Assembly (NCBI GenBank): GCA_964035545.1
Contig: OZ037771.1
Span: 8,859,408 to 8,923,407 of the forward strand
Reading direction: 5' to 3'
DNA: 64,000 nucleotides
Source: Bugula neritina
Lineage: Eukaryota; Animalia; Bryozoa
Below the pieces are notes generated by a model that ran no database searches, was not told where the DNA came from, and was given only the letters and a program-made list of their open reading frames with translations. This document shows positions 34,056 through 61,249 of this stretch, piece after piece (within the stretch, counting starts at the first letter, position 1; each line of letters starts with the position of its first letter). The translations under genes and the position numbers were made by a program.

Positions 34056-34067
34056 GCCGAAATAGCT
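34056..34067 (-). promoter_or_regulatory. Element A non-canonical PBS, complementary to the 5' 12 nt of tRNA-Phe
   Basis: Abuts the 5' LTR; the plus strand reads GCCGAAATAGCT; no TGG-starting PBS next to the LTR. Confidence 0.75.
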
Positions 34068-38510: not shown

Positions 38511-39461
38511 TCACAGACGGCCCGCAGGAGGTGGGAACATCCGCGAGCCGTGGTAGTTTAACCCTTGTGGGAGCTGAGGGCAGTTCCTCTGGAAATGTCC
38601 TGGCCTTCCGCATTCCCAGCAGAAGTGGTGCCCCATGCCTGGTGATTGTACCTGCGGCCCGCAAGGCTCACGGGCAGTATCTACCTGGCTTGGGGAAGCT
38701 AATGTGGTGACCAGTTTATCTAGCATGTCAGTCATCTGTGCGATTTTTGACGCTAGTGACATCTGGTTCACATTAGCCACCGCGGAGGGTTCCGCGTTTG
38801 GTTCGGCGTGAGCAGTAGTGTGCTCCGTGGTCACCTGGCGGGAGGCCACGCGGTTGCGGTGCATATGAGTCGCCAAGAGGTAGGCTTCTCCCACCGCAAG
38901 TGCATCTTCGACCGTGGTGACTCCCCTCGCTTGGAGTTGATGGTGGAGCCACAAGTCGTTGATGGACTGCACGAAGGCATCATAAGTATACCTCTCACGG
39001 TGTACTGGAGGCAGATCGCGGAACGCGATCTGCGCTAGTGGGTACACCGTGGCAGCGTGCTCTTCTAGCGACGTGTGAGGATCACGCCGCATCCTTTGTA
39101 GACGGGCCCGCGCATCTATGGGAGAGATGCCAAACCGGGCCCGCAGAGAAGCAAAGATTCCGTCTATGTCAGGTCCCGCTCCGTACGGCTTAGCTTTGCC
39201 CGTCAGCGCCATCCTGAGCTTGAGCAACGCCACCCTTGGTGGCCACTCTGAAATCTCCATCACATCTTGGAATTCTTGGATAAACTGCTCCACCGCTTCT
39301 TCGCCTGTGAAGGTGGGCGCCTTCAGCCGGTATCTGTCTTCACCATGCTCTCTAAGAATTCTCACTTCTTCATCTAACACCACTGGTTCCACAGGTATAT
39401 CAACATTATCTCTCTCACCTTCATTCAGTGGAATGGGTAGCTCCGTGCCGTCTTCTGCCAT
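38511..39461 (-). CDS. gag: Element B Gag (single CCHC knuckle)
   Basis: LKAPTFTGEE..; CWECGRPGHFQRNC. Confidence 0.92.
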   Translation of the reverse strand: MAEDGTELPIPLNEGERDNVDIPVEPVVLDEEVRILREHGEDRYRLKAPTFTGEEAVEQFIQEFQDVMEISEWPPRVALLKLRMALTGKAKPYGAGPDIDGIFASLRARFGISPIDARARLQRMRRDPHTSLEEHAATVYPLAQIAFRDLPPVHRERYTYDAFVQSINDLWLHHQLQARGVTTVEDALAVGEAYLLATHMHRNRVASRQVTTEHTTAHAEPNAEPSAVANVNQMSLASKIAQMTDMLDKLVTTLASPSQVDTAREPCGPQVQSPGMGHHFCWECGRPGHFQRNCPQLPQGLNYHGSRMFPPPAGRL

Positions 39462-41694
39462 GACTGCTATACGCAAGATCCCACCGCTGCCACCACTGTA
39501 GTAATTTGTGCAATTACTGAGCGTGAGTTATTTACTTGCGTATAGTTAGCTGGTTATTCTGCTAGCAATTACTAGGGTAGCTGTCGAGTAATTATATTTA
39601 TTATCCACAATAAAGCATAAAACAAACATCACATCAAATTATCCTATACATCAGTCAACTACTAACACATGTTACTACTTCAAGCCTCCGCTTACAACAA
39701 CGTGATATAATGTTAATAACCGGGGAAGTGTCACGTGAATCGGAAGCATATCTTCCGGAGCTGCTAATTGGTTGCTACATAAGGGTCTGAGTATTCCAAG
39801 AGTAGAGAGAGGGCGATTCCCGTATTTGTACTTTGCACTACTCACTACACTATTCCTAGAGTAAAAGTTAATCTTATATTTATACTTATACAGTTTCAGT
39901 TTGACTTTAGTCTGCGAGTTTTGGTTTGTTGATTACAGATTGAAGTAGAGATTAAGAGCTTAAGTTTACTGTCTAGCTTTACTAGCACTACTACTAGTAG
40001 TAATAGTACTACTAGTAACACTAACAATAACTGTGTCCGCTACTGTTAGTGTTTAGAAGTTTACCATAAAATTCAACTATTAGTATTACATTTACAATTA
40101 CTGATTAGTATTAGTACTATTAGTATTACTAATACTAATACTAATAGTAATAGTAATACTATCAGTATCACAGTATCAGTATGGGTATCATTATGAACTT
40201 AAAGCAATTGTAAAAGTTGAAGTGTAACTGTAAGACTAAGTCTAAAATTAGGGTTAGAATAATAAATTATTTACCTTTTTAAAATATGAATATGATGAAT
40301 TATAAATATGAATAAGTTATAGGTAATAAGTTAGTTAATAAGTATAACTAAACCCAATCCAATGTGAATATCAATATGACTATGAATATTGATATTCATA
40401 TTAAATATCAATTATCAAATTGAATGAATATGAATTCAATTTATAAATGAGGTAAACTACAAATAACTAATAACTAATAAGTATAACTGAATAAGTATAA
40501 TAATAAAGTATAGCTATAACTATAACTCAGTATAAGTGAGTACTATTAGTCTAACTCAATAAGTATAAATTAATAAATAATTATAAGACTAAAAGTATAA
40601 GTTATTAGGTATACGTATAACTAAAGTATAACCTAAATTTAAAGTTAAACTAAAACAGTAAACTACAAGTATAGCATTAACAGTATGAGTATAACTAATA
40701 CTATTACTATTAGTATTAGTATTACTATCACTATGAGTATGAGTATGGCTAAAAACTATAAGTATAAGCCATAACTATAAGTATAAGTATTAGTATAACT
40801 ATAAACAACTATAAACTTATATAAGTATAACATATTATTATAATAATAATATTAATATGTTATATGTATCAGTATTACATAAATACATTAATATAAGTCT
40901 AAGACTCTTAGTCTTACTTTTAGTAAGAGTAAGTGTAACTCACTAACTCACTAAGTGACTAACACTAACACTAACAGTAACTGTAAGTGTAAGCCTAAGC
41001 CCTAAGCCTAAGGTCTAAGGACAAGGTCCTAAACGACTAAACCAAAATTGATCAGCTTCCCAATTAAAACTCAACTATACTAACACAGCATAGTAGAGTA
41101 ATATATTGTTATGTTTTTCAGATTTAGGGTTGATATGCTATCCAGAGAGTCTAATTACTTGCTACAGAACTGCACCAGGATAAGTCGAGTGAACGAGTAT
41201 ATATTTTACACACAATAATACATTATAAAACGATACAATACATCTGACAATTTACACATCTAATCTATTCAGCACTCTAACTTCGACTGAGTTAGCAGCG
41301 GGAAACTATAATTGCTGCTAACTATCAAATACGCTAATTGGCTATCCATTGTTCCGGGTCAATTACGCGACCCTACATGTTGTGCTGCTGGTAGTTTCAC
41401 GAACCACCACACCGCCCCCACCAGCAGAAAGCCCTCTTTCTGATATAAAAAAAACGTTCATTGTTAACCGCATACATCAGTAGACCAAAATAATACATAA
41501 CACACAGGAAGATACATAATAATAGACAGAGTCATTATAACAGTCCGTTACCTACAATTGACCGGCTATAGAGGAGGAATACCGGCTAGCTGTGGTATTG
41601 GACAAGGAATAGGCCTGTCGAGCAGTCAAGCATTTACATGACATCTTGGTTTCTCCCAAGAGGGCGAAGTTGCAGATTATTCCGGGTAGCAGAA

Positions 41695-42772
41695 CTAGAG
41701 TCCTTGTTGGGCACGCCGGTGCTTGGCTTGGCATGTACGCAGTTTCCGTTTCATCCGGCATACGGATCCTTTTAGTTGGAAGAGCCCTGTTGTAGTATTA
41801 AGTAGATCCGGTGCCAACTGGGTGAATTCTTCTTGTAATCACAGGAGGCGTTCCTCTACTGTGGCCAGGCGAACTGGGTCTGGGGACGGTGTCCGTCTGC
41901 GGCGCAAAGGGGGACTGGGGGACCTGGTTCGTCTCTTCGTCGGGGTAGGAGAGATCTCTCCTTCTTCTGGATAGGCAAACTCTTCGGGGGTGTACGTAAT
42001 CTGAGGGCGGTCAGATACCAACGGGGATTGTTGTCTGGCGTTGTCTAATACACGTTGGAACCCCGATGTCAGGACGGCTAACAGCATTGCCTTCTTCACT
42101 AGGGGTCGTATAAGGGTGAGGAACTCCGGGTAGAGCTTAGCGTCGACCACGTAGTTCTCTCCAGAGAAACAGCCCGTCGCTCGATGTCTGGTGACGGGGT
42201 AGGGATAAACATCGTTGTATCCGCAGGGGCAGAATGTGAGTAGGAGATGAGCATTGACATGTAACTTCAAGGAGGGGTGAGAGGCACATTCTTCACCACA
42301 ATTCTGGCATCTCGTCCGTCCTCTGGACCCCCAGGCCGTTTCTATTTCTTCCTCTGTTTCTGGAGACACCCACCGCCAACGGCGGCGTAGTGACTCAGGC
42401 CGGTCGCCACTAGCATACTCCTCAGGATGCGGAGCGGGAAGTGCTCTATCCCGTACCCTGGTTGTAGCGGGTCGAGTGTAATCTGAAAAAGTTTCAACAG
42501 TGTTAATACAGTGCACTGCCGTGTTGTCAGCTTGAATAGCTTGGCAACTCCTAATTCAGTTACCTCGTAGAGATTTATGGTAGCGAATAGTCAGATAGAA
42601 CACGTATTGCAATGAGATTATAAAAATCTCCAAGTCAAACTGAGTTCTTACTACGGTATTTCACTAACCTATCTCCAGCTCGATTGACTCAGTGAGTCAG
42701 AGCTGAGCGATGCAATCTAGTTTCGCGTTAAGTTATAGTTAACTCACCCCACGATCTGTTGTCGTAAGACAT
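41695..42772 (-). CDS. Element C spliced accessory ZnF/coiled-coil gene with an internal TGA
   Basis: Exon 1 42772-42748 (MSYDNRSW+G|gtgagt), intron 42747-42483, exon 2 from 42482. TGA at 41841-41839 where B/E have CGA/AGA Arg; homology continues to TAG at 41695. Confidence 0.78.
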
Positions 42773-42796
42773 ACTGAATGTGTGAAATGGTTTGAA

Positions 42797-45700
42797 CTAC
42801 TGCTTAGGAACACGTCTACTCCTGACTGCATCAGCGTATGAAAAGATCGAGCAACAGGGTTGGGGTGCGTGATTAAGACTTTGTGCACTCGGCGGATGAA
42901 TTTTGTTTCTATTTCCGCCGATACAAAAGTTGATATTTCCGTGGTGTTGACAACTCCCACATTTGCTCGATACTTTTCTCGTACGGTTTTCCCCTGGACT
43001 TTCATACACGCCGCTTTTAACGCAGTCGCATATGAAGTCTTTCAAGTATGCGGGGGGTTGTCTCGTACGCTGTCCCCTTTTTAGGGGGGGTGACACGCTT
43101 GCCGGTTCGTTAGTAGGGGCCTCTAATGGCGTCTCTACTTCACCGTTAGCGGTCACCTCTTCTTGTTCTCCGGACGGAGCCCCTCCCTCCGTGGGGGTTT
43201 GCACTTCCGGAACCGGTTCGGTTTCTGGAAGTGATGGAATTAGACTTGGCGGTGGCAGACACGCTTCCGTTGGCAAAAGCTGCCGTTCCTCTCTCACCAA
43301 GTTTTCCTCCTGCGGTATGACCACTTCGTATTCAGGTCCATGCCGCCGTCGCCCGCGCGTTGTTGTCTGCCTTCTGGGCTCCAACAACGGGGGGGCTTCT
43401 CCCACTGCGTCGGGGCTAGCCCAATACGGTTTCAAGCGAGACTCATTCTGGATAGACACCTGTCCTGAGCGCTCAATCTTGTACGTATGATTGGGCATAG
43501 CCATTGACGATCACGTAGGGTCCTACGAACTTAGGCTTTAGTTTATCAGCCTGTCCGCGACGCCTACGGTAATTGACCATCCACACCTTATCTCCCGTTT
43601 GGTAGAGAGGTGGTTCATCGGAATCTTCGTGCCGCACCTTCCACTGCTGTTCGCGCAGCATATCGTGTGCGGCCTTCATCCGTTCCACTAGTTCACTGGC
43701 ATACTCGTGAACCGAGTTGTCTTGCTCTGGAACGTGGTAGGTGAGATGGTCAGGGACACGAGTCTCTCTCCCGAGCATCAAGAGGTTTGGGGTCTCACCA
43801 GTACTGGTGTGTGTGGTGCTACGGTATGCACGCATGACTTGCGGCAGCACCGTATCCCATTCCTCTTGGCCTCGTCCAAGGAGGAGACTCCGGAGCGCAT
43901 CACCTAGCATCCGGTTGTTGCGCTCCACCACCCCGTTACCTTGAGGGTGGTAGGGGGTGGTCCGGCTCTGATTTACTCCCCAGAGGTGGCAAAGGTCGCT
44001 CATCAGTTGAGACTGAAATTGAGCGCCTTGATCAGAGTGTATCTGTTCGGGAAGCCCAAAATAACAGAATACATGTTGGTCTAGTGCCCTGGCCACTGTT
44101 GGGGCTGACGCATCTGGGATAGCCAGAGCATCCGCCCACCTAGTAAAGTGGTCGGTTAGTACTAGGATCCAATTATTGCCTCTGGGGGTCAGGGGCATTG
44201 GTCCGACCAGGTCTACAGCGACTACTTGCCAGGGCCTACCAGCATATAGCCTCCGCCGTCCTGCTTCACCAGGGGGGCGGCTATGCTTACTGGCCTGGCA
44301 GATCTCACACTGTTTGACTCTGAGTCGGACGTCACGCTCCATTTGTGGCCAATACCACCGGAGTCGTAATTCGGATATCACTCTCTTGACCCCTGCGTGG
44401 GCCTGTTTGTGAGTATCCCAAATCAACTCACGGCGGATGGCCGTGGGGCAGACTACCCTCTTCCTCTCCGGGTGTCTGCCGCTGGCGGCTAGGGAGATGG
44501 TTAGTAACCCATCCTGCCCGATCCGTAGCGAGTCCCAACGCTGACAGTATAGCCGGAACTCGGCGCATCCCTGTCGTATGCGTTCCTCGCTGGGTCGTCG
44601 CCCTTCCCTTTTGGCCCGATATATGTCTGCCACGACTCCAGGCAGCTCTTCTTGGAGCTTCTTCAGCTCTCGAACATTACCGGCCAGTACAGGGTTGGCG
44701 CGGAGGTTTTGTACACCCTCCGGGGACTCATCAACTCCCTGCCTGAGTTGACCCTGGTCCCAGTCAAACGGTGCTCCGTGGTGAGCCAGCGTCTCCAACT
44801 CGCATCGCGGGGGACCTCCATCCCTCCTCTCGATGTTGAGACACTGTTTGCAACCTCCGTCAGGTCGGCGACTCAACCCATCCGCATTGCTGTGTCTCTT
44901 GCCCGGTCGATGTTCGATCCGGTATGAGAATTCAGCTAGGATTTCGAGCCACCGGGCGACCTGACTAGAGGGCTCTGCTCTCTTGCACAACCAGATCAGC
45001 GAGGCATGATCCGTACGCAGCCGGAACTTCCTGCCATATAGGTATGGTCTGAAGTGCTTCACTGACTTGATTACTGCCAGCAGCTCCTTGCGGGTAGTGC
45101 AGTAGTTTCGTTCAGTGGGTGAGAGAGACTTGCTGTAGTAGGCTACTACTACTTCTCGGCCTTCCTGCACTTGCGACAGCACAGCGCCAACATTTTGGTC
45201 ACTGGCGTCAGTGTCGAGGATGTACTCCAGAGTGGGGTCTGGGTAGGCCAAGATGGGCGCCGTTAGTAGGCAGCCCTTGAGGCGGTCGAACGCTCCTTGT
45301 TCGACTGGGGTCCACTGCCACGTCACTCCCTTTGCGGTGAGCCGGTTTAACGGCTGTGCTATGCCCGCAAAGTCTGGTATGTATTGTCTGTAATACCCTA
45401 CCAGCCCCAAGAAAACCCGGAGTCCGGTCAAGTCTTGGGGGGTGACCCAGTCTTCAATTGCCCGGACCTTCTCGGGATCCGTTGCCACGCCGTTTCGACC
45501 GACAACGTGCCCCAGGTACTTAACCTCTGGCTGCAATAGAGCGCACTTAGAAGGTTTGAGCTTAAGACCGGCACCTCGGAGTCTCTCAAAGACCTCCTGC
45601 AGACGACTGACATGTGTCTCGAAGTCTGGGGAGATCACGATGACATCATCGAGGTAGATCAGCAGTGTCTTCCAATGGAGCCCGCTGAGGACTTGCTCCA

Positions 45701-47311
45701 TCAGCCTCTGGAAGGTGGCTGGGGCGGAGGTCAACCCGAAAGGCAGCACCTTCCACTTCCACAAACCGTCCCGTGTGATAAACGCCGCTTTCTCCTGGGC
45801 GTCGGGACTCAGAGGAACTTGCCAATAGCCGCTTAGCAAGTCTAACGTACTGAAGTACTTGCTGCCGGCTAGGGCGTCCAATGACTCGTCAATACGAGGT
45901 AGAGGGTAGGCGTCCTGTATGGTTACGCTATTGAGTTTGCGGTAATCCACACAGAACCGCCAACTGCCGTCTTTCTTCCGGACCAGTACGACTGGCGAGC
46001 TCCACGCACTATGGGCGGACTCTATCAGTCCCCGGTCCAGAAGATCCCGTACTTGTCGGTTAACCTCCTTCTCTTTCTCCGGCCCCAGCCTGCGTGTGGG
46101 CTGCCGAACAGGGACTGTCCCTGCAGTCAGCGGTATTTCGTGTCTGACAATTCCAGTCAGTCCCACGTCATGCTCTCCGCTGCTGAACACATCACCGTAG
46201 TCGCGTAGTAACTTAGCCATAACTTGGCGTTCTTTGTTACTCGCGCAGCCGCTACAGGCTGTGTCATATAACTCCCGGAGATGTGCTGGGACTGCCCCTC
46301 GCCCTTGAGTAGGGCACTGAGGGAGTGCCTCTGTCGCATCACCCAGCGACGGGCCTACGTCCTCCTCCTGAACAGAGTGAAAACGGCCCAGCATCGACCC
46401 AGCCGGAAGCTTGACAGACTCGGTAAAGGGGTTGACACACTGCACTAAGATCTCTCCTTGTTCAGTCAGCTGATTCAGACTGCTGGCAAGTTGGATCTTT
46501 TTGTGCGCGCCTTCAACTACCCCGAGTCCAGAGATCCAGCTATTGTTCACCCTGCAGTGAATGGTAGCCCGGGAGCGGCCTGGTATAGTACGGTTGCGTA
46601 CCACTTGCACACCTCCCACTAAAGGGCGGCCGAACTTGTCGACGCAGGCGAGTTCCCGCCCGGATATCATCATCGCAGATTTGCTAAAATCGATGTGACA
46701 TCCGTGCCGTTTTAGGAATGGCATCCCGAGCTGACTGACGATGAACGTCTCTTGGATCGTTTGATCACGGACTCGTCCCGTCAGCTCAATTATACCATAG
46801 AAGGGAAAGCACGACCCGTCAGCTAGGGTGCCGTACTCCCCTTCGTATGAGTCCATCTCGCCCCTGACCCTAGCACTGAGGGTGTCGAAGAGTTGGCGGC
46901 TCAAGAGGTTCGTGGTACAGCCCGAATCAATGAGGAAAGTAACAGCTTTGCCTTCCAGTTTACCGGGAAAGAAATAGCTGTTCCCATGGGGCTGCACCTG
47001 AACTCTCCCTTCAGGCCTTACTCTCGCAGGGAGTACCTCCCTCGCTTTGGGTCGCGAAGGAGGTCTCTTGGGGCGGTGGTAAGTAGGCCTCGGGGGTGCC
47101 GAGGCTAGATTCCCGGCTACCTTTGTGGGCTCCCATCCAGATTCTTGGGCTTGTAGCCCTGCGAATCTGTTGTGAAGGGGCATGGAAAAGTTAGCCACGG
47201 TTGGTTACCAGTACGCGGTACCCGTCTGGGTGACCTGCGTTTCTTCTTCCCTGGAGGTTTCATCATCGGCCCGCAGGAGGTGGGAACATCTGCAGGCCGC
47301 GGTAGTTTAAC
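42797..47311 (-). pseudogene. pol: Element C pol (PR-RT-RH-IN), frameshifted
   Basis: FLIDSGC, WRFCVDYRKLN, YLDD, DTDAS, HKQAH..CEIC, VDLVGP/HSDQG/VERNN, GPY; split over ORFs 47117-47371, 43473-47198 and 42797-43504. Confidence 0.93.
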
Positions 47312-48213
47312 CCCTGATTTAGGAAGGGACAGTATCGGCGGAAATGTCCTTGATTTCCGCATTCCCAGCAAAAACTGACTGTTTCTCCCTGTGGCGGCGC
47401 CGGTGGCCGTACGGGCTCAGTGGCGGTACCTACTGGGGTTTGGGGTGTCAGTGTTGCTATCAGTTTGACCAGCATGTCTGTCAGTTGAGTGACTTTCGAT
47501 GCCGTCGCCAGCTGGGACACGGCAGCCGCGGCGGGGGTTTCCTCCCCTTGTCCCGCGGCCGTGTCCGCGCGGTCTACCTCCACTTGACGGGAGCTCCCGC
47601 GACTTTTATGCATTTGATTAGCTAGGAGGTAAGCTTCCCCCTCAGTCGGAGCATCTTCAACGGTGGTGACTCCCCTAGCTAGAAACTGGTGGTGGAGACC
47701 CAAATCGTCGACAGATGCTATGAAAGCGTCGAGGGTATATCTCTCGCGGTTGACTGGGGGCAAGTCGCTGTACGCGATCTGTGCCAGCTTCATGACCGCG
47801 GCGGCGTGCTCCCGCAGCAGGGTGCGGGGATCACGCCGCAACCTCTGCAATCGGGCCCTGGCATCTGTAGCAGAGAGGCCGATGCGGGCCCGCAGAGAAG
47901 CAAAGATATTATCAATGTCTACGCCCAGCCCATAAGGCTTGGCTTTGTCCATCAATGCCATTCTAAGCTTCAGCAGGGCCACCCTAGGGGGCCACTGGGC
48001 GACGTCCATTACGTCGCTAAACTCTTGGATAAATTGTTCCGTCTCCTCTTCGCCCGTGAAGGTGGGCGCCTTTAACCGGTAGCGGTCTTCAGTTAGTTCT
48101 CGCGGAACCCTTCGCTCTTCTACTATATGGTTAACAGGCATTGTCTCTACAGCATTGTCTCTACGCTCACCTTCTACTGCCGGTGGTTGCGTTCCAGCAT
48201 TTTCAGTCTCCAT
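47263..48213 (-). CDS. gag: Element C Gag
   Basis: 316 aa; CWECGNQGHFRRYC. Confidence 0.92.
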   Translation of the reverse strand: METENAGTQPPAVEGERRDNAVETMPVNHIVEERRVPRELTEDRYRLKAPTFTGEEETEQFIQEFSDVMDVAQWPPRVALLKLRMALMDKAKPYGLGVDIDNIFASLRARIGLSATDARARLQRLRRDPRTLLREHAAAVMKLAQIAYSDLPPVNRERYTLDAFIASVDDLGLHHQFLARGVTTVEDAPTEGEAYLLANQMHKSRGSSRQVEVDRADTAAGQGEETPAAAAVSQLATASKVTQLTDMLVKLIATLTPQTPVGTATEPVRPPAPPQGETVSFCWECGNQGHFRRYCPFLNQGLNYRGLQMFPPPAGR

Positions 48214-48744
48214 CTTGGATGCACCATCCCACCGCTGCCACCACTGTTATGATTTTCAGATTTAGGGTTGATATGCTATCCAGAGAGTCTAATTACTTGC
48301 TATAGAACTGCACCAGGATAAGTCGAGTGAACGAGTATATATTTCCCACACAATAATACATTATAAAAATGATACAAATACATCTAACAATTTACACATC
48401 TAGTCTATTCAGCACTCTAACTTCGACTGAGTTAGCAGCGGGAAACTATAATTGCTGCTAACTATTAAACACCCTAATTGGCTATCCATTGTTCCGGGTC
48501 AATTACGCGACCCTACATGTTGTGCTGCTGGTAGCTCCACGAGCCACCACAATAGTTCTCAGCAATAGTAAATTAAAATGTTACTATTGGGCATTGATCA
48601 CGTTTTATATAGTCCGTGAAACAACTTTATAAATAACAGTCCGAGTAATACACGGTAGCTAAATCGAATGTGTAGCGCCGTGTATATCATACAAAATATC
48701 ATTTTATTATTTCGAGCTATGACTTCGCATGACACTCGACCTAC

Positions 48745-49307: not shown

Positions 49308-49603
49308 GTAAGTATTAGTATCACTATATTAAATTTAATATCATTAAATATAAAAATTCAAATGTTCAATAATTATAATATAAATATAACTTATAGTTAT
49401 ACTTATGGTATTATAATACTAATAGTATAACAATAACTATAATTATAAATATATGTTTTTATTTTACTCGTACTTATAGTAGAATTAAAAGTAAAGTAAA
49501 ATCATATACTTATAATTACAGTTATTGTTATACTATCAGTATTTGGTCTATTACTATTAGTATTACTATTACTATTAGTATTATTATTACTATAAGTTTA
49601 TAT

Positions 49604-52600
49604 TGTTATGTTTTTCAGATTTAGGGTTGATATGCTATCCAGAGAGTCTAATTACTTGCTATAGAACTGCACCAGGATAAGTCGAGTGAACGAGTATATA
49701 TTTTACACACAATAATACATTATAAAACGATACAATACATCTGACAATTTACACATCTAATCTATTCAGCACTCTAACTTCGACTGAGTTAGCAGCGGGA
49801 AACTATAATTGCTGCTAACTATCAAATACGCTAATTGGCTATCCATTGTTCCGGGTCAATTACGCGACCCTACATGTTGTGCTGCTGGTAGTTCCACGAA
49901 CCACCACACCGCCCCCACCAGCAGAAAGCCCTCTTTCTGATATAAAAAAAACGTTCATTGTTAACCGCATACATCAGTAGACCAAAATAATACATAACAC
50001 ACAGGAAGATACATAATAATAGACAGAGTCATTATAACAGTCCGTTACCTACAATTGACCGGCTATAGAGGAGGAATACCGGCTAGCTGTGGTATTAGAC
50101 AAGGAATAGGCCTGTCGAGCAGTCAAGCATTTACATGACATCTTGGTTTCTCCCAAGAGGGCGAAGTTGCAGATTATTCCGGGTAGCAGAACTAGAGTCC
50201 TTGTTGGGCACGCCGGTGCTTGGCTTGGCATGTACGCAGTTTCCGTTTCATCCGGCATACGGATCCTTTTAGTTGGAAGAGCCCTGTTGTAGTATTAAGT
50301 AGATCCGGTGCCAACTGGGTGAATTCTTCTTGTAATCACAGGAGGCGTTCCTCTACTGTGGCCAGGCGAACTGGGTCTGGGGACGGTGTCCGTCTGCGGC
50401 GCAAAGGGGGACTGGGGGACCTGGTTCGTCTCTTCGTCGGGGTAGGAGAGATCTCTCCTTCTTCTGGATAGGCAAACTCTTCGGGGGTGTACGTAATCTG
50501 AGGGCGGTCAGATACCAACGGGGATTGTTGTCTGGCGTTGTCTAATACACGTTGGAACCCCGATGTCAGGACGGTTAACAGCATTGCCTTCTTCACTAGG
50601 GGTCGTATAAGGGTGAGGAACTCCGGGTAGAGCTTAGCGTCGACCACGTAGTTCTCTCCAGAGAAACAGCCCGTCGCTCGATGTCTGGTGACGAGGTAGG
50701 GATAAACATCGTTGTATCCGCAGGGGCAGAATGTGAGTAGGAGATGAGCATTGACATGTAGCTTCAAGGAGCGGTGAGAGGCACATTCTTCACCACAATT
50801 CTGGCATCTCGTCCGTCCTCTGGACCCCCAGGCCGTTTCTATTTCTTCCTCTGTTTCTGGAGACACCCACCGCCAACGGCGGCGTAGTGACTCAGGCCGG
50901 TCGCCACTAGCATACTCCTCCGGATGCGGAGCGGGAAGTGCTCTATCCCGTACTCTGGTTGTAGCGGGTCGAGTGTAATCTGAAAAAGTTTCAAAAGTGT
51001 TAATACAGTGCACTGCCGTGTTGTCAGCTTGAATAGCTTGGCAACTCCTAATTCAGTTACCTCGTAGAGATTTATGGTAGCGAATAGTCAGATAGAACAC
51101 GTATTGCAATGAGATTATAAAAATCTCCAAGTCAAACTGAGTTCTTACTACGGTATTTCACTAACCTATCTCCAGCTCGATTGACTCACTGAGTCGGAGC
51201 TGAGCGATGCAATCTAGTTTCACATTAAGAAACAGACTCGGTAAAGGGGTTGACACACTGCACTAAGATCTCTCCTTGTTCAGTCAGCTGATTCAGACTG
51301 CTGGCAAGTTGGATCTTTTTGTGCGCGCCTTCAACTACCCCGAGTCCAGAGATCCGGCTATTATTCACCCTGCAGTGAATGGTAGCCCGGGAGCGGCCTG
51401 GTATGGTACGGTTGCGTACCACTTGCACACCTCCCACTAAAGGGCGGCCGAACTTGTCGACGCAGGCGAGTTCTCGCCCGGACATCATCGCAGATTTGCT
51501 AAAATCTATGTGACATCCGTGCCGTTTTAGGAATGGCATCCCGAGGATGGCGTCCTCCTTGAGCTGACTGACGATGAACGTCTCTTGGATCGTCTGATCA
51601 CGGACTCGTCCCGTCAGCTCAATTATACCATAGAAGGGAAGGCACGACCCGTCCGCTAGGGTGCCGTACTCCCCTTCGTATGACTCCATCTCGCCCCTGA
51701 CCCTAGCACTGAGGGTGTCGAAGAGTTGGCGGCTCAAGAGGTTCGTGGTACAGCCCGAATCAATGAGGAATGTAACAGCTTTGCCTTCTAGTTTACCGGG
51801 CAAGAAATAGCTGTTCCCATGGGGCTGCACCTGAAGTCTCTCTTCGGGCCTGACTCTCGCAGGGAGTACCTCCCTCGCTTTGGGTCGCGAAGGAGGTTTC
51901 TTGGGGCGGTGGTAAGTAGGCCTCGGCGGTGCCGAGGCTAGATTCCCGGCTACCTTTGTGGGCTCCCATCCAGATTCTTGGGCTTGTAGCCCTGCGAATC
52001 TGTTATGAAGGGGCATGGAAAAGGTAGCGGCGGGGCGGAGCCCCTTGCTGGTCTGTCGCGGCTGTTGCCACGGTTGGTTACTAGTACGCGGTACCCGTCT
52101 GGGTGACCTGCGTTTCTTCTTCCCTAGAGGTTTCATCGTCGGCCCGCAGGAGGTGGGAACATCTGCGGGCCGCGGTAGTTTAACCCCTGATTTAGGAAGG
52201 GACAGTACCGGCGGAAATGTCCTTGATTTCCGCACTCCCAGCAGAAACTGACTGTTTCTCCCTGTGGCGGCGCCGGTGGCCGCAAGGGCTCAGTGGCGGT
52301 ACTCACTGGGGTTTGGGGTGTCAGTGTTGCTATCAGTTTGGCCAGCATGTCTGTCAGTTGAGTGACTTTCGATGCCGTCGCCAACTGGGACACGGCAGCC
52401 GCGGCGGGGGTTTCCTCTCCCTGTCCCGCGGCCGTGTCCACGCGGTCTATCTCCACTTGACGGGAGCTCCCGCGACTTTTATGCATTTGATTAGCTAGGA
52501 GGTAAGCTTCCCCCTCAGTCAGAGCATCTTCAACGGTGGTGACTCCCCTAGCTAGAAACTGGTGGTGGAGACCCAGATCGTCGACAGATGCTATGAAAGC

Positions 52601-53423
52601 GTCGAGGGTATACCTCTCGCGGTTGACTGGGGGCAAGTCGCTGTACGCGATCTGTGCCAGCTTCATGACCGCGGCGGCGTGCTCCCGCAGCAGGGTGCGG
52701 GGATCACGCCGCAACCTCTGCAATCGGGCCCTGGCATCTGTAGCAGAGAGGCCGAAGCGGGCCCGCAGAGAAGCAAAGATATTATCAATGTCTACGTCCA
52801 GCCCATAAGGCTTGGCTTTGTCCATCAATGCCATTCTAAGCTTCAGCAAGGCCACCCTAGGGGGCCACTGGGCGACGTCCATTACGTCGCTAAACTCTTG
52901 GATAAATTGTTCCACCTCCTCTTCGCCCGTGAAGGTGGGCGCCTTTAACCGGTAGCGGTCTTCAGTTAGTTCTCGCGGAACCCTTCGCTCTTCTACTACA
53001 TGGTTAACAGGCATTGTCTCTACAGCATTGTCTCTACGCTCACCTTCTACTGCCGGTGGTTGAGTTCCAGCATTTTCAGTCTCCATCTTGGATGCACTAT
53101 CCCACTGCTGCCACCACTGTTATGTTTTTCAGATTTAGGGTTGATATGCTATCCAGAGAGTCTAATTACTTGCTATAGAACTGTACCAGGATAAGTCGAG
53201 TGAACGAGTATATATTTCACACACAATAATACATTATAAAAACGATACAATACATCTGACAATTTACACATCCAATCTATTCAGCACTCTAACTTCGACT
53301 GAGTTAGCAGCGGGAAACTATAATTGCTGCTAACTATCAAATACGCTAATTGGCTATCCATTGTTCCGGGTCAATTACGCGACCCTACATGTTGTGCTGC
53401 TGGTAGTTCCACGAACCACCACA
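49604..53423 (-). mobile_element. Element D: internally deleted copy of family C
   Basis: LTRs 49604-49908 and 53118-53423 (about 4 differences). TSD ATAT. Intact gag 52133-53086 and PR. A deletion of about 3.7 kb at about 51230 removes RT-RH-IN and exon 1 of the accessory gene. Confidence 0.95.
52133..53086 (-). CDS. gag: Element D Gag
   Basis: 317 aa, near-identical to the element C Gag. Confidence 0.92.
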   Translation of the reverse strand: METENAGTQPPAVEGERRDNAVETMPVNHVVEERRVPRELTEDRYRLKAPTFTGEEEVEQFIQEFSDVMDVAQWPPRVALLKLRMALMDKAKPYGLDVDIDNIFASLRARFGLSATDARARLQRLRRDPRTLLREHAAAVMKLAQIAYSDLPPVNRERYTLDAFIASVDDLGLHHQFLARGVTTVEDALTEGEAYLLANQMHKSRGSSRQVEIDRVDTAAGQGEETPAAAAVSQLATASKVTQLTDMLAKLIATLTPQTPVSTATEPLRPPAPPQGETVSFCWECGNQGHFRRYCPFLNQGLNYRGPQMFPPPAGRR

Positions 53424-54719
53424 ATATTACACTTTGATTATAAACTTAAAATGTATTAGTTTTTGAAATTGACTTTGATTATACCTATAACTATAAGTAT
53501 GTAAACTTGATGCTACAAAAATCTGTTTGATCCATAAGTTTCTAGCAACTAACTAGGTATGTTGACTTTGATGTAACACTGTAAACTATAACTTAGACTG
53601 TTACTAACAGTCTAAGTTATAGTTTACTTCTTTTTAAATATTTGTTACAGGCATATTTGTATGCTTTCGCTTGCCGATCATCATGCATGCTGTATGTAAT
53701 GCAACTTTTCCAGAAGTTATATTAAATATTTTAGTGCTGTGAAGTTCTAACTGTATCGAGGGTTTTAGGGTTAAAATCAATAGAATATAGAAACGGCATG
53801 ACCAGCATGGAGACGGCATGACTGGGTGTTGTCATTCCTGGCCGTAAACTATTGCATTATGTTTAGCAGGAGACACTGGGGGTTATATTTCCGCTGGCCA
53901 TTACGCTACCCAATGTGTGTTCTATGTGTTTCAAAAATCTCAATGTCAATGAAAAAGAAAAACAGATAGGAGATTGTAATTTATGCAAATAATAAACTAA
54001 AATATAAACACATATTACGACAGGATGTCAGGATTTATGTATAATCAACACTACTGTGCACACCTATATATTGTAGTAATTTGTGCAATTACTGAGCGTG
54101 AGTTATTTACTTGCGTATAGTTAGCTGGTTATTCTGCTATCAATTACTAGGGTAGCTGTCGAGTAATTATATTTATTATCCACAATAAAGCATAAAACAA
54201 ACATCACATCAAATTATCCTATACAAGAGTCAACTACTAACACATGTTACTACTACAAGCCTCCGCTTACAACAACGTGATATAATGTTAATAACCCGGG
54301 AAGTGTCACGTGAATCGGAAGCATATCTTCCGGAGCTGCTAATTGGTTGCTACATAAGAGTCTAAGTATTCCAAGAGTAGGGAGAGGGCGATTCCTGTAT
54401 TTGTACTTTGCACTACTCACTACACTGTCCCCCCCAGCAGAAAGCCCTACTTTCTGATAACACAATAAAAAAAAACACATAATGAAAAACTATACAATAA
54501 TCCAAAAAGAAAAACATACATAAGTAAACCCACAAAGAGTAAGAAAAGGAACAGTTGAGCACGACAAAATTTACATTGGAAGACAACAGGGTGATCGATC
54601 ACACACATCTAGTCAGCTATTAAGAGAGAGGGTGCTTACCAGCACACGGGCCAATGTCGGGGCGCTCGTCACATTCCAAACGAGTTACAGCTCAACGAAG
54701 GTGCCTACCCCAGGCATTC

Positions 54720-55776
54720 TCATTGGTTGGACTCTGATTCTTGTAGCGACCGTGCTCTGTGTCGAGCCTGTCGGGCCCGTAGCCGCCTCTTCAGTCGCCC
54801 CACTGAGTCCTTCAACTGGTATAGACCTGTCGTCGTATCCAGCAGGTCAGGGGCAAGTTGTGTGAACTCGGCTTGTAGTCTTATAAGCCGCTCTTCTACG
54901 TTAGCCAGCTGGCTAGGCCTTGGTGGGGTTGTAGTGGTCTCCGTTAGAGGGGATATTGTTGTTTCTTCTGCTTCTGGGGTGTTGCTAGGGTTGACGGGGG
55001 TAGGAGGTGGGCCCTGAACCATAGGGGACTTATGGCGGGCGGATAGTAGCAGTACGTGAAACCCTGACGTTAGTGCGGCCAGGGTGATAGCCTTCCTGAT
55101 GACTGGCTTGATGGCATCCAGGTATAGGGGGAAACTGTCTTCATCAACAGTGTGGTTCTCTCCGGCGAAGCAGCTTAGCTTATGTACTGTCACGGGATAC
55201 GGGTAGACGTCGTGGAACCCGCAGGGACAGAAGTGGAGTAGGAAATGGGCGTCTACATGTAAACGCAGGGAGCGGTGTGACGGGCACTCCTCAAAGCAGA
55301 CCTGGCAGGTTCGGTGTGGTCCACTGGGTCCCCAGGCTTCTTCAATTCTCCTCTCTGTCGTGGGTGACACCCAACGGTGTCGTCGGCGGAGCACTACGGG
55401 TATGCCATTCTCCATTACAGGTTCTTCTTCCATAGACAGAGAGGTTGGCTGGTCTCGTGACCGGGAGGTGGTCACTCGAGTGTGATCTGAAAGAGTAGCA
55501 GTGTTGAAGATTATACACTGAGGCACCGTCGGCGTGTACAGCCTGACCGGTACTCTGTTCAGTTACACTCGTGAGATTCAGGCTAATGAATAGTTGATGG
55601 AGAACACACTCGCTATGACAGATTATTTAAAATCAAAGTCGACGTGTATTCCCACCACTGTTTATCATTATCGAATCTCCAGCTCGCTAGCTAGTGTAGC
55701 TAAGCTGACTGATGCAGTCTAGTTATCGTACCAAAAACATAATTAACTCACCCTTCGATCCAGAATAGTAAGACAT
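54720..55776 (-). CDS. Element E spliced accessory ZnF/coiled-coil gene, 263 aa, intact
   Basis: Exon 1 55776-55752, intron 55751-55487, exon 2 55486-54720. Confidence 0.8.
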
Positions 55777-56083
55777 TTTGGAATGAGAGTGGTAAGTGAT
55801 TACTGTTTACTGGCACGTCTACTCTCGACTGCATCAACATGGGAAAAGACCGGACAGCGTGGTTGTGAAACGTGACTAGGGCTTTTCACTTCCAGCGGAT
55901 GAATCTCGTGTGAGATTCCGCCGAGGCAAAAGTTGAGATTTTCGTGGTGATCACAACGCCCACGGCTCTTTGCCTGTTTTCCCATGCGAGGCCTCTCTAG
56001 ACTTTCGTTACTGCCGCTTATACCGCGGTCACGTACACAGTCTCTGAGACACCCTGGAAGTTGCCTAGTGTGTGGTCCTGGTC

Positions 56084-58057
56084 CTATGTTGGTATCTCCT
56101 TGCAGAGCCCCTCCCACGGGGGTTTTTGCACTTCCGGACCTGTTTCTGGTTCCGGAAGTGGTGATGATGGCAGGCTTGACGTTGGGGGCGGTGGGCGCAC
56201 TTTCAAGGACGGAAGTGGCCTTTCTCGCCTCGCCAAGTCTTCCTGACGTGTCATGGAGGTGTTTCCGGCCAGGTTGACAGTCTCCGCCTGCCGAGACCTT
56301 CTCGCACAATGCGTCTGCCGCCCCGCTTCACCAGGGAGACGGCTATGCTTGTTGGTCTGGCAGACTTTGCACCGTCTCACTCTGCGTCGGATATCTTGTT
56401 CCATGTTAGGCCAGTACCACCGGAGTTGTAGCTTGGTGACCACCCCTTGGACTCCTCCGTGAGTCTCCTCGCGGGTGTCTTGTATCAACTTCCGGCGGAT
56501 GGCAACTGGGCAGACAACCCTCTTCCTGGCTGGCTGTCTGCTGTTGGCGGCCAAGGTCATGGTCAGCAGACCATCTGGCCCGACCCGCAGAGAGCTCCAA
56601 CGTTGACAGTACAGCCGTAACTCGGCGCATCCCTGTCGCCGTTGTGTACTACTGGGTCGTCGCCCTTCCTGTTTCGCTCGGTACACGTCGGCTACCACCC
56701 CAGGAAGACATTCCTGGAGCTTCGGCAGCTCCCTAACGTTACCAGCCCATACAGGTTTGGCGCGGAGGCTCTGGGCAGCCTCCGGGGGCGTGTCAGCCCT
56801 CTGTTGGAGTAGCTGAGCAGGGGCGGTCCTCGCCGCCCGTGGTACCTCACGGCAGCCTGCTCTATTTAGGCGGGCTCCGTGGTCTGTGTGGCTGAACGCC
56901 TCACTGTACCCATGTGGCAACCTAGCCATAGCCTGGCGCTTCCCGTTGCCTGTGCAGCCACGCGTCCCTGGAGGAGGGAAGGCGTGGGTTGGGACGGTCC
57001 TCCGCCCTCGAGACGGGCTCTGCTGAGGACCTTCCGTCGTAGCTCCCGACAACGGCCCAATGGCTTCCTCCTGGACAGGATGGAAGCGACCCAGCATGGA
57101 TCTGGGTGGTAGGTCTACTGTCTCTGAGAAGGGGTTGACACACTGCACTGAGATCTCTCCTTGCCCCGTGAGCCGGCTAAAACTACGGGCAAGTTGGACT
57201 CTCGAGTGCGTACTTTCGACAACTCCCAACTTAGAGGTTTGGCCACCGTCTACCTTGCAGCGGACGGTAGCCCGGGAGTGGCCTGGTATAGTACAGCTCC
57301 GTACTACCTGCACTGCTCCCGCTAGAGGACGACCAAACTTATCGACACAAGCGAGCTCCTTGTCGCCCATGATCATCGCAGATTTACTGAAATCGATGCG
57401 ACAACCGTGTCGTTGTAAGAATGGCATCCCGAGGATAGCATCCTCGTTGAGCTGCCCGACGATAAACGTCTCTTGGATGGCCTGGTTACGGACGTAACCA
57501 GTTAGCTCAATAATGCCGTAGAAGGGAATGCACGACCCGTCTGCCAGGGTGCCATGATCCCCCTCATACGGTGCCAACCCGTCCTTGACCTTAGCGCTGA
57601 GGGTGTCAAAGAACTGACGGCTAAGGAGGTTGGTGGTGCAGCCGGAGTCCAGGAGGAAGTTGGCAGGCTTGCCGGCTAGCTTCCCTGGTAGGAAGTAGCT
57701 ACTTCCGTGCGGCTGCAATTGTGTGTGCCGTGGTTGCACCTCCCTCGCTGTGGGTCGAGGGGTCCACGGTTGGCGGCGACTATTGACCAGCTGCCGAGGT
57801 TGGGGCGGTACGCCTTGCGGCGTCTGTACTGTTTCCCTCGCAGGCTCTGTGGTCAACCGTCTGCCGGCTCCGTGTTGGTGCTGGAGTGGCGTAGAGGACC
57901 CAGGCGGCGAGTGGCTTGAGCCTACTTGCCGCGGGGGTCGCCACTTCACAGCATCTCCGCGCGGCGCCCAGCGGGGCGACAGACGCGCGGGCCTCCCTGG
58001 GTGATTCACAGACGGCCCGCAGGAGGTGGGAACATCTGCGGGCCGGGGTAGTTTAAC
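56084..58057 (-). CDS. pol: Element E shortened Pol: PR, linker, IN zinc-finger region and Pro-rich tail in one frame
   Basis: FLLDSGC protease; no YLDD, RNase H or DDE motifs; retains THGG..CKVC; open across both deletion junctions. Confidence 0.88.
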   Translation of the reverse strand, partial: VKLPRPADVPTSCGPSVNHPGRPARLSPRWAPRGDAVKWRPPRQVGSSHSPPGSSTPLQHQHGAGRRLTTEPARETVQTPQGVPPQPRQLVNSRRQPWTPRPTAREVQPRHTQLQPHGSSYFLPGKLAGKPANFLLDSGCTTNLLSRQFFDTLSAKVKDGLAPYEGDHGTLADGSCIPFYGIIELTGYVRNQAIQETFIVGQLNEDAILGMPFLQRHGCRIDFSKSAMIMGDKELACVDKFGRPLAGAVQVVRSCTIPGHSRATVRCKVDGGQTSKLGVVESTHSRVQLARSFSRLTGQGEISVQCVNPFSETVDLPPRSMLGRFHPVQEEAIGPLSGATTEGPQQSPSRGRRTVPTHAFPPPGTRGCTGNGKRQAMARLPHGYSEAFSHTDHGARLNRAGCREVPRAARTAPAQLLQQRADTPPEAAQSLRAKPVWAGNVRELPKLQECLPGVVADVYRAKQEGRRPSSTQRRQGCAELRLYCQRWSSLRVGPDGLLTMTLAANSRQPARKRVVCPVAIRRKLIQDTREETHGGVQGVVTKLQLRWYWPNMEQDIRRRVRRCKVCQTNKHSRLPGEAGRQTHCARRSRQAETVNLAGNTSMTRQEDLARRERPLPSLKVRPPPPTSSLPSSPLPEPETGPEVQKPPWEGLCKEIPT

Positions 58058-58956
58058 CCTGGTGGGAGCTGAGGGCAGTTTCTCTGGAAATGTCCTGGCC
58101 TTCCGCATTCCCAGCAGAAGTGGTGCCCCATGCCTGGTGATTGTACCTGCGGCCCGCAAGGCTCACGGGCAGTATCTACCTGGCTTGGGGAAGCTAATGT
58201 GGTGACCAGTTTATCTAGCATGTCAGTCATCTGTGAGATTTTTGACGCTAGTGACATCTGGTTCACATTAGCCACCGCGGAGGGTTCCGCGTTTAATTCG
58301 GTGTGAGCAGTAGAGTGCTCCGTGGTCACCTGGCGGGAGGCCACGCGGTTGCGGTGCATATGAGTCGCCAAGAGGTAGGCTTCTCCCACCGCAAGTGCAT
58401 CTTCGACTGTGGTGACTCCCCTCGCTTGGAGTTGATGGTGGAGCCCCAAGTCGTTGATGGACTGCACGAAGGCATCATAGGTATACCTCTCACGATGTAC
58501 CGGAGGCAGATCGCGGAATGCGATCTGCGCTAATGGGTACACCGTGGCAGCGTGCTCTTCTAGTGACGTGTGAGGATCACGCCGCATCCTCTGTAGACGG
58601 GCCCGCGCATCTATGGGAGAGATGCCAAAACGGGCCCGCAGGGAAGCAGAGATTCCGTCTATGTCAGGTCCCGCTCCGTACGGCTTAGCTTTGCCCGTCA
58701 GCGCCATCCTGAGCTTTAGCAACGCCACCCTTGGCGGCCATTCTGCAATCTCCATCACATCCTGGAATTCTTGGATGAACTGCTCCACTGCTTCTTCGCC
58801 GGTGAAGGTGGGCGCCTTCAGCCGGTATCTATCTTCACCATGCTCTCTAAGAATTCTCACTTCTTCATCTAACACCACTGGTTCCACAGGTATATCAACA
58901 TTATCTCTCTCGCCTTCATTCAGTGGAATGGGTAGCTCCGTGCCGTCTTCTGCCAT
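58006..58956 (-). CDS. gag: Element E Gag
   Basis: CWECGRPGHFQRNC. Confidence 0.92.
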   Translation of the reverse strand: MAEDGTELPIPLNEGERDNVDIPVEPVVLDEEVRILREHGEDRYRLKAPTFTGEEAVEQFIQEFQDVMEIAEWPPRVALLKLRMALTGKAKPYGAGPDIDGISASLRARFGISPIDARARLQRMRRDPHTSLEEHAATVYPLAQIAFRDLPPVHRERYTYDAFVQSINDLGLHHQLQARGVTTVEDALAVGEAYLLATHMHRNRVASRQVTTEHSTAHTELNAEPSAVANVNQMSLASKISQMTDMLDKLVTTLASPSQVDTAREPCGPQVQSPGMGHHFCWECGRPGHFQRNCPQLPPGLNYPGPQMFPPPAGRL

Positions 58957-61249
58957 GACTGCTATACGCAAGATCCCACCGCTGCCACCACTGTAGTAAT
59001 TTGTGCAATTACTGAGCGTGAGTTATTTACTTGCGTATAGTTAGCTGGTTATTCTGCTATCAATTACTAGGGTAGCTGTCGAGTAATTATATTTATTATC
59101 CACAATAAAGCATAAAACAAACATCACATCAAATTATCCTATACAAGAGTCAACTACTAACACATGTTACTACTACAAGCCTCCGCTTACAACAACGTGA
59201 TATAATGTTAATAACCCGGGAAGTGTCACGTGAATCGGAAGCATATCTTCCGGAGCTGCTAATTGGTTGCTACATAAGAGTCTAAGTATTCCAAGAGTAG
59301 GGAGAGGGCGATTCCTGTATTTGTACTTTGCACTACTCACTACAATATACAGCTGAAGTCGTTGAAATGCTTAATACAGAGAGCTACGAGTTGCTTTGGG
59401 GAGGCTGTAGTAAATACGTTTGTAGCAGTAGCTGGCAGCATGTTTACATGCACACTGTGTGTATGTGTGTTTCATAGTCCATCATCATAGTATATTCATA
59501 GCTCCTAAACAAAACAATGAATTCCTACAACTGCGCAGCAAAAACCACAACTACTGAATCAAGTGCATTGCAAAAGTCTAAGACAACAAATCTGCCAGAA
59601 CATTTCTGTTCCCTTATTTGGAATTACTTGGGACTGGTGGTGCAATCTGGGTGACCAATAGGATCTGGAACACATCATTTTTGTTTGTTTGTTTTTTGTG
59701 TATTATTCTGCTGCTGTTGGAAAGCATTGGTTATCCTGATCAGTTGCAATTAGTAGAGCCAAAGATCAAGTTATACTACTTATAATTTTACATTAAACAA
59801 GATACATATTACTAACTATTGAAACCTAAGAGCAGAAGCTGTATTATCAAGTTATCAGAGAAGTGCTAAAGGTTTGTCCGCTATTAATTTTTCTATCATT
59901 TATTGTCTTAATGCCTTAATATCGATACATTTAGCTTATATTATATGAAATGGTTTATAGCTGACATTATTTTTAATGAATTATTATGCAGTAATATTTT
60001 GCTTACTTTAATAATTTTTATGTGTGTTATTTCCTTACAGTTCTTATTTTCTTGTACTTTATTTAGCCTTATATTGTGTGTATTTTATTTAGATTTCACG
60101 GTGTAGCTTTGTGAGCAAAAGTGTTATAAGTTGGAATAAAATACTAATAACTACACTCACAAGACATCAGTTTAATTCCTAAACCTACTCTGATAAGCTT
60201 GCGGTTGCTAGCAGACCTAACAAAAACTGCTACAACGTTGGTAACTGGAAATAAATGTTTAGTTGCAAAGAAGTTAGTAAGCAACATTCAGATTCTTCTA
60301 GAGATGGACATTAAATGAAATGTTCAGGTGATGCATGCAATGTCTCCCGGATAGGAATTTAAATGGTTTGGGATAAAGGAGTTGTGCAATCAGTGTGATT
60401 ATAGAGGAGAGCTGTTAACTCAGTTGAGTAAAACTGACGCAGAAGAAAATGATTTTAAACCTTATTTCAATGGTGAGAGGTGGGTTATTCAGAGTAACTG
60501 GAGAAACCAAGACCCGCCTTAATTAGATGACTAACGTGCTGGATATTCTGTCCTACTAAACAGTGAACAAAGGATGGTGAGATAGTAGAGCATGATCACA
60601 GAGTGCATGGAGATGCATCAGGTTAAGCAACCCAACAAACTCAAAACTGTGCGCTCAGTGATGTATTATAAAGAATGAACTAATCATATGTCAGAAGCAA
60701 TCCAGGTATAGATATTGCAGTAATTGTAGTATGTTAGCTTATATGAAGAGCCAAGAGCATGATGAATAAGAAGTTAAAGCAAGTGGGCCTGTGCTAGTAT
60801 ATTGCAGCCATTGTGTTCTTTCAAAGTTTGCTAGTTTTCAATACTATATAATTATATATAATATATCCCATTATAGGTTTTATTACATGAAACTACAATC
60901 AGATGAGTTAAGCACATAATACTTTTAATTGTACCAAAAATATAATACACAGATATGTCAAAGGCAACAAATAGAGAACTACTTCAAATGATGCTTGTAA
61001 AGGTTTTAGGAGTTGGTGCTTTACTGATATTTAATAACCAATGAAATTTCAGCAATGACTACTGTAGCACAGCCTGCATACACAACATGAACTCAAGTAC
61101 AATCACCTATTCCATAAATTGACATCAATGAGTACAAAAAATACTATCATTATCAACAAGAGTACTGGGTAGGGCTGGTTATTCAGAATCTATCATTGCC
61201 TATAGTAGCCATTAATAGACCATGTAAGATTGGTACATTTAGTACCTTG

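Follow-up and report, generated by a model that had tools for sequence, protein, structure and literature searches.

To our knowledge, there are very few LTR elements without env for which it is known how their unspliced genomic RNA passes the host's control of splicing and export; CERV is the clear Gypsy case. CERV belongs to Cer1, a Gypsy/Ty3 element of C. elegans, and is a spliced non-env ORF required for the export of genomic RNA; the accessible text of its description gives a protein of 517 aa encoded by 5 exons, with H, M (C4-type loop) and G-protein-like domains, and reports no homology outside nematodes (PMC10309623). ORF3s are typically spliced (PMC5408684), and non-env accessory ORFs have been described in rotifers, with GDSL, DEDDy and coiled-coil products (PMC5408684), in MDG1 (sORF1 and sORF2, 10.1101/2025.03.14.642691) and in the plant Retand elements (3ʹ ORFs, PMC11963269). 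Some of these products are nuclear or proposed regulators (PMC5408684, 10.1101/2025.03.14.642691, PMC11963269). As far as the accessible parts of these papers go, the domains, positions or expression routes of the rotifer, MDG1 and Retand ORFs differ from those of the ORF3 described here. The word 'zinc' had no match in the accessible text of PMC5408684, PMC11963269 and 10.1101/2025.03.14.642691, and nothing on zinc or C2H2 appeared in that of PMC13524379, PMC8220671, PMC8556966, PMC11963269 and 10.1101/2025.03.14.642691. An earlier sequence-only reading of the locus had started from the premise that Gypsy third ORFs are usually env-like, which misses both CERV (PMC10309623) and the rotifer non-env ORF3s (PMC5408684).

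Here we analysed a group of Gypsy elements from the bryozoan Bugula neritina, and the evidence supports a real, selected, spliced, non-env ORF3 that encodes a zinc-finger/coiled-coil protein. As in CERV, the non-env ORF lies after pol and before the 3ʹ LTR (PMC10309623). CERV forms the C-terminal part of a spliced protein with its 5ʹ exons in the gag frame, and a relative of the present protein, P0012, is built alike; the leucine zipper, basic signal, Cys-rich finger and lack of membrane features given for CERV (PMC10309623) also have their counterparts in the ORF3 protein. Judged by the accessible description of CERV, the ORF3 protein is set apart by its length of about 263–269 aa, its C2H2 + C2HC fingers, its C-terminal coil and an N-terminus made of either 14 Gag residues or a private mini-exon. 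ORF3 looks like an independent protein in a CERV-like layout. The sequence-only reading had not recognised the protein from described families. The concept of a spliced non-env Gypsy ORF was already known from CERV (PMC10309623, accessible text); what is added here is an accessory gene, spliced and under selection, whose domain family is unclassified. No description of the ORF3 protein was found in the published papers searched; an annotation may already exist in Repbase, Dfam or GyDB.

The window, which is the whole stretch of 64,000 nt analysed here, has a GC background of 33–35% and contains satellites and a cluster of LTR elements. Four Gypsy copies (B, C, D and E), all on the minus strand, carry the non-env ORF3 after pol and before the 3ʹ LTR. 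B (34569–39850) and E (54072–59344) are 97% identical over 5.3 kb, and both have lost RT/RNase H and the integrase core; C (41102–48551) has the full Gypsy domain order, with PF13650, PF00078, PF17917, PF17921 and PF00665 in pol, and D (49599–53423) is a deleted relative of C. The LTR pairs are 95–100% identical, the primer-binding site (PBS) and polypurine tract (PPT) can be read directly in the sequence, and the PBS is common to B, C, D and E. With their LTRs, PBS and PPT, a CCHC gag and the order protease-RT-RNase H-integrase, these elements are Ty3/Gypsy LTR retrotransposons. In E, the 5ʹ LTR (58992–59344) is 100% identical over 353 nt to the 3ʹ LTR (54072–54424), which is preceded by a PPT, and this identity indicates a very recent insertion. 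Between the two LTRs lie gag with its CCHC knuckle (58009–58956; PF00098, E=5e-05) and the pol remnants (55800–57757), which retain the protease and the integrase zinc finger without RT/RNase H and the integrase core and end at a pol-tail stop at 55800–55802.

Several other features of the window were recorded. Copies of the flanks of E, 98–99% identical, lie 42 kb away with no element between them (17345–19214 and 59345–61216; 16940–17348 and 53663–54071), which places an empty site inside the window. The 3ʹ LTR of C is 98–99% identical to the LTRs of D and 95% identical to its own 5ʹ LTR (41107–41411, 48245–48551, 49604–49908 and 53118–53423), and the ORF3 regions of C and D are 99% shared, a pattern that suggests a chimeric or converted element. 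The pol of C has a frame break in the C-terminal part of integrase (43473–43510), and its tail reads on to 42797 in another frame. At 29179–34469 lies an unrelated Gypsy element that has 98.8% identical LTRs, DUF7047 in pol and no ORF3 match; more fragments of the B/C/D/E lineage, copy A among them and none with an ORF3 match, lie at 11693–14112 (plus strand), 3–1039 (plus strand), 4933–5367 and 7621–10075, and satellite arrays with units of 21, 34, 11/22 and 19 nt were found at 21865–23330 and 24500–26360.

Consistent with the sequence-only reading, ORF3 starts with a 25-nt mini-exon on the minus strand, with its ATG at 55776 (E), 36273 (B) and 42772 (C) and a phase-1 donor, G|GTGAGT. A GT-AG intron of 265, 266 and 265 nt in E, B and C separates it from the acceptor TTTCAG|AT at 55486, 35982 and 42482 (also found at 50979 in D), and the phase matches. 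In E, the mini-exon (55752–55776), the intron (55487–55751) and exon 2 (54720–55486, 254 codons past the junction) give the 263-aa product that had been predicted. The mini-exon shows no difference between E and B and is identical at 17 of 25 positions between E and C, the intron contains stops in all three frames in both E and C, and upstream of the acceptor just the last two residues are common to the E and C translations, which bears out the claim that protein similarity starts at the acceptor. B (35216–36273) has a mini-exon at 36249–36273, the 266-nt intron and an intact exon 2 with 97% protein identity to E, and C (41695–42772) has a mini-exon at 42748–42772, the 265-nt intron and exon 2; in D, most of the intron, the acceptor and exon 2 remain (50213–51229), and a deletion has removed the mini-exon and its donor. 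ORF3 had been described as kept intact, which is right for B and E but not for C and D, where an in-frame stop (41839–41841 and 50336–50338, respectively) precedes the coiled coil. Of 136 close relatives examined, 33 match across the acceptor. In 32 of these 33, which are related sequences and not independent events, Asp is preceded by F/L-S or L-L, the residues expected from a pyrimidine-YAG acceptor; the odd one is P0012.

The exact joint predicted for E, 55486->55752, was present in run X1 (one contig, depth 843, short side of 29 letters). The 265 nt left out are bounded by CT..AC on the plus strand, corresponding to GT..AG on the coding strand, and the joint was the only one of the 15 listed joints (of 20) in X1 with ends of this type. 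X1 also contained the empty-site joint across the whole of element E, and 11 of the 15 listed joints had depths of 80–143, which is DNA-like at roughly 110–120 per copy; X1 is probably a DNA run. In that case about seven copies would lack exactly the intron, a state that would call for splicing and then reverse transcription; if X1 is RNA, the joint is direct splicing. Whether X1 is DNA or RNA, the predicted mini-exon junction exists in one contig of this one run, which may be related to the source of the window.

The inventory of donors in the sequence-only reading was incomplete, because a second conserved donor in gag had been overlooked. This phase-1 donor, which matches that of the mini-exon in phase, lies 43 nt into gag and has been preserved in both families; it reads AAG|GTGAG after the first 43 nt of gag in B (39419–39461), C (48171–48213) and D (53044–53086), all on the minus strand. 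In E the sequence is AAG|GCGAG, and the 43 nt before it (58914–58956) are a candidate first exon. A fifth copy, A, keeps the gag donor as well, and at 58913–58912 E has GC in place of the GT of A, B, C and D. Of the G|GTRAG sites, three in B and four in C, the two copies share just those of gag and of the mini-exon. Among the 120 of 134 relatives listed, P0012 carries 14 Gag-like residues (12/14 identical to the B/E Gag start) and then D-H-T-R into exon 2, which is exactly the phase-1 join of the gag donor to the ORF3 acceptor. The gag donor of the window copies, in matching phase, would explain this fusion; P0012 comes from one 5,320-nt JGI/IMG contig, the contiguity of which is inferred. With the gag donor and the join to the ORF3 acceptor in P0012, expression need not rely on an internal promoter.

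A candidate upstream acceptor, consisting of a pyrimidine tract and TGCAG, was also found at 55829–55854 on the minus strand of E, 52 nt before the mini-exon ATG. It is kept 52 nt before this ATG in B and 53 nt before it in C, and it also codes for pol-tail residues. This site could make the mini-exon an internal exon. Joining the gag donor to it would leave a short upstream ORF that the pol-tail stop closes 23–24 nt before the mini-exon ATG, so that reinitiation would be possible without an internal promoter. Considering the gag donor, P0012 and this candidate acceptor, the separate subgenomic RNA starting near the mini-exon that had been postulated earlier is not needed. Each splice form is documented by one record, the X1 contig for the mini-exon and P0012 for the Gag start.

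Exon 2 of E encodes a double zinc-finger domain (55011–55427), a Pro/Thr linker, a seven-heptad coil from residue 193 and a basic tail. The 139-residue domain was modelled by AlphaFold2 with a pLDDT of 94.2 and a pTM of 0.87, and the ORF3 core is confidently predicted to be a C2H2 + C2HC domain. Of the two metal clusters proposed earlier, finger 1 stood as C-x2-C-x12-H-x3-H, and the second reads C-x-C-G-x11-H-x3-C, not CxxC. Over 74 aligned sequences the spacing of finger 1 was C-x2-C-x11/12-H-x3-H, and the ligands were retained at C60 in 71, C63 in 72, H76 in 73 and H80 in 73 for finger 1, and at C86 in 74, C88 in 74, H101 in 69 and C105 in 58 for the second finger; W, T and I before the fingers and V-D plus helices after them were conserved as well. 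A C-terminal heptad segment was detected in 13 of 61 distant relatives, compared to 0.34 in shuffles.

No Pfam family reached its cut-off in the ORF3 protein of E or C. For PF00096, C scored 12.5 bits against a gathering cut-off of 25.2 and E gave no match; one of 51 distant relatives passed a C2H2 cut-off (P0181, PF13894). A first structure model had a pLDDT of 55.6, and its fold search was uninformative. With the 139-residue domain model, neither PDB nor BFVD yielded a Foldseek match at E<=0.001, VIA-align found none of 48,161 chains at Z>=5, and a PDB sequence search with the domain returned one match at E=1.4, null results that do not establish a new fold. The best structural neighbours of the two-finger core were DNA-bound C2H2 arrays, namely Kaiso (Z 3.9, rmsd 3.5, 59/139 residues) and SALL4 (Z 3.5), and in the ESM Atlas the top three clusters were unnamed (0.95–0.96) and followed by C2H2-type clusters, which are leads only. 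The spacing of finger 1 is like that of classical C2H2 arrays (PF00096; Kaiso, SALL4) and the structural match is weak, whereas the second finger, after a 5-residue linker and within a larger conserved fold, is unlike them. The absence of a membrane segment, claimed earlier, was confirmed by a top 19-residue hydropathy of 1.43 (E) and 1.51 (C), with a third recorded maximum of 0.88; both candidate N-termini are polar by eye. ORF3 resembles the env-type ORF3s of errantiviruses and other Metaviridae in its position after pol and in its probable expression by splicing from the element's 5ʹ end, but differs from them in having no transmembrane segment by hydropathy, 0–1 N-glycosylation sequons, about 260 aa and zinc fingers. 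Its model shows zinc fingers and a charged coil, with neither a transmembrane anchor nor a glycosylated ectodomain, and it is not env-type.

The dN/dS of ORF3 between E and B was 0.19 (bootstrap CI 0.07–0.45), indicating purifying selection, and that between E and C was about 0.12, with dS near saturation. The value for gag between E and B, 0.17–0.20, was like that of ORF3. A simpler count for E vs B, based on small numbers, gave 0.22 for ORF3, 0.20 for gag, 0.30 for the protease region, 0.57 for the integrase remnant and 0.71 for the pol tail, and the C vs D value of 0.37, with an interval reaching 1.9, was uninformative. The low dN/dS of ORF3 in B and E indicates that selection went on in the RT-less lineage. 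Further, dN of the coil codons past the C/D stop was still low (0.17), and therefore the truncation is recent.

Contrary to the claim that the intron sequence has diverged, the introns of E and C are identical in 184 of 274 columns (67%), compared to 52% for the LTR and the 3ʹ UTR and 48% for shuffles. The intron is thus better conserved between E and C than the synonymous sites, the LTR or the 3ʹ UTR, as fourfold sites are identical at 23 of 57 positions in ORF3 and 41 of 96 in gag (fourfold range 40–55%). Between B and E, 4 of 265 intron sites differ vs 15 of 202 synonymous ORF3 sites; the integrase remnant is equally uniform (8/561), and recombination may therefore contribute. Given 67% vs 52% identity, the candidate for a conserved non-coding target is the intron and not the LTR, and from this conservation the intron likely holds a cis element, acting as RNA or DNA. 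The intron folds better than shuffles (z −3.6 and −2.75), as do its antisense strand (−2.65 and −2.04) and most of gag-pol; its 150-nt windows are unremarkable, and in a consensus fold from the two lineages compared, 8 of 48 pairs are changed on both sides.

Some further observations concern RNA folding and the intron. Between the gag donor and the acceptor (55487–58914 and 42483–48171), sense RNA folds better than shuffles, with mean z of −1.6 and −1.4, whereas exon 2 and the 3ʹ UTR do not (−0.4 and +0.1). RNA order was considered as a family mark of the retained region (E, p=0.028; C, p=0.003), but was dropped with p=0.40 in the distant relative L062. Some 70 nt ahead of the acceptor (approximately 55552–55560 and 42556–42564) there is an invariant 9-mer that includes CTGAA, similar to a branch point; a conserved hairpin lies between this 9-mer and the acceptor, and the consensus fold pairs the 9-mer with the acceptor itself.

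A profile search for the domain gave 129 representatives at 50% clustering. Pattern matches gave no relatives in metagenome contigs (0/79) or in viral contigs (0/3 and 0/40, with no RT match), and a motif scan of genome contigs gave none. The motif scans covered 100 loci (8 viral, 92 metagenome) and contained one strong relative, L062, and two weak fragments, L065 and L088, without retroelement context; the remaining loci were treated as chance because the pattern itself had selected them. In L062, the domain (E=8e-26) lies in an ORF ending at a PPT, which is followed by a TG..CA LTR, and after the LTR come the same PBS, a gag 36% identical to that of C (E=2e-27) and the start of a protease. 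We interpret L062 as a tandem or circularly permuted element in which the ORF comes last. It falls on the far side of the domain tree, which has few columns and many open forks, and by eye it has no clear gag-start donor; the genomic context of distant relatives covers this one locus. Longer fused forms were not found at 374–2000 aa or 1044–2980 aa, which is weak evidence.

We tentatively favour, at somewhat less than an even chance, the reading that the ORF3 protein is a Rev/CERV-like regulator of the element's own RNA. RNA started in the LTR would be spliced by default, either from the gag donor to give a Gag14-ORF3 protein or through the mini-exon. The protein would then enter the nucleus, oligomerise via its coil and attach to the conserved intron region of unspliced RNA. 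This would let genomic RNA that retains the intron avoid splicing or be exported, to serve for Gag/Pol translation and packaging. Such a loop fits the combination of strong donors in a genome that must stay unspliced, a splice-only regulator, a constrained intron and the retention of ORF3 in copies with Gag only; B and E would keep ORF3 without RT because Gag mRNA and a packageable genome are still needed. Like HIV-1 Rev, Rex and Rec, the ORF3 protein would be a small regulator made from spliced RNA only, with a basic segment and a likely oligomeric state, and its candidate cis element lies inside the retained intron. HIV-1 Rev itself is not known to have zinc fingers.

The protein may instead act on DNA, as a transactivator or anti-silencing factor in which the coiled coil forms a dimer of finger pairs, a possibility that we rank not far below the RNA reading though still as unlikely, as we do the accompanying internal promoter near the mini-exon and a target in the conserved intron/pol-tail DNA or the LTR. 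The logic would be that of foamy-virus Tas, a transactivator expressed from an internal promoter. DNA binding is favoured a little by the DNA-bound C2H2 arrays with which the two-finger core aligned best, if weakly (Z 3.9); distant relatives have on average 2.9 basic residues among the 9 that precede the first His, the mini-exon's own ATG is conserved in two families, and the intron constraint would fit an enhancer equally well, as folding is not strand-specific. However, the two families share a well-preserved finger region but LTRs of just 52% identity, the Gag-start donor together with P0012 shows a route that begins in the LTR, and X1, if DNA, would imply splicing of an LTR-started packageable RNA. 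We consider it quite improbable that ORF3 is a particle or integration cofactor, recruited via the Gag14 fusion or the coil, with fingers that would read chromatin, histones or host proteins and so direct insertion or entry into the nucleus. Fingers of the C2H2 type are also established mediators of protein contacts, the Gag-start fusion exists in P0012, and ORF3 is kept in RT-less copies that still encode Gag; yet the 14 Gag residues are low-complexity and differ between the families (4/14), the mini-exon form has no Gag residues at all, a targeting factor in cis would be of little use to integrase-less copies, and the intron constraint would be left unexplained.

The role of the mini-exon was weighed in the same way. 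It might be a side route, with the Gag-donor splice as the working mRNA and the mini-exon junction as a cryptic one fixed in few retro-copies, which we think doubtful. D has lost the mini-exon yet retains the gag donor and acceptor, the mini-exon peptide occurs in none of 256 stored proteins and the Gag start in one, and there is no promoter evidence, but the absence among proteins weighs little because prokaryotic gene callers cannot join exons. Moreover, the ATG, 25-nt length, phase and donor of the mini-exon are kept between families near synonymous saturation, and the junction in X1 is the mini-exon one, with no Gag-donor joint among the 15 listed (of 20). Finally, ORF3 could be a captured host zinc-finger fragment that is carried passively, with the junction as a chance deletion. 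One relative is annotated as a bryozoan gene (XP_067940964.1), X1 has many other deletions, and C and D are truncated; against this, dN/dS between copies is about 0.2 and equal to that of gag, the deletion matches exactly a junction predicted beforehand, and L062 shows the same pre-PPT position in a lineage across the domain tree, which makes passive carriage highly improbable.

If the Rev/CERV-like reading is true, Gypsy elements would have acquired 'complex' regulation on more than one occasion. The candidate target is a small constrained intron with defined splice sites, which would allow a compact reporter test; the zinc-finger domain is well folded and, with 129 cluster representatives, has no Pfam family, and the accessory gene stays under selection in RT-less copies. 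We speculate, and think it unlikely to hold as a whole, that a widespread undescribed lophotrochozoan Gypsy lineage carries a complex-retrovirus-like circuit independent of Cer1, in which a new double-zinc-finger/coiled-coil protein with two splice forms, Gag-start and mini-exon, would bind a conserved response element of its own 265-nt intron and switch RNA between spliced message and packageable genome, and that hosts, bryozoans for example, would have domesticated the domain. Of the 10 distant clusters looked up, one is named, as XP_067940964.1 of the bryozoan Watersipora subatra. This protein (P0137/P0249, with XP_067940963.1) is an annotated gene with two domain copies and a C-terminal coil, and a domestication of the domain is possible for XP_067940964.1 and XP_067940963.1. 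Two domain copies also occur in P0181. In a sister clade (P0154, P0166, P0167 and P0205), a conserved N-terminal extension of about 100 residues is in frame with the domain, which suggests a different exon layout.
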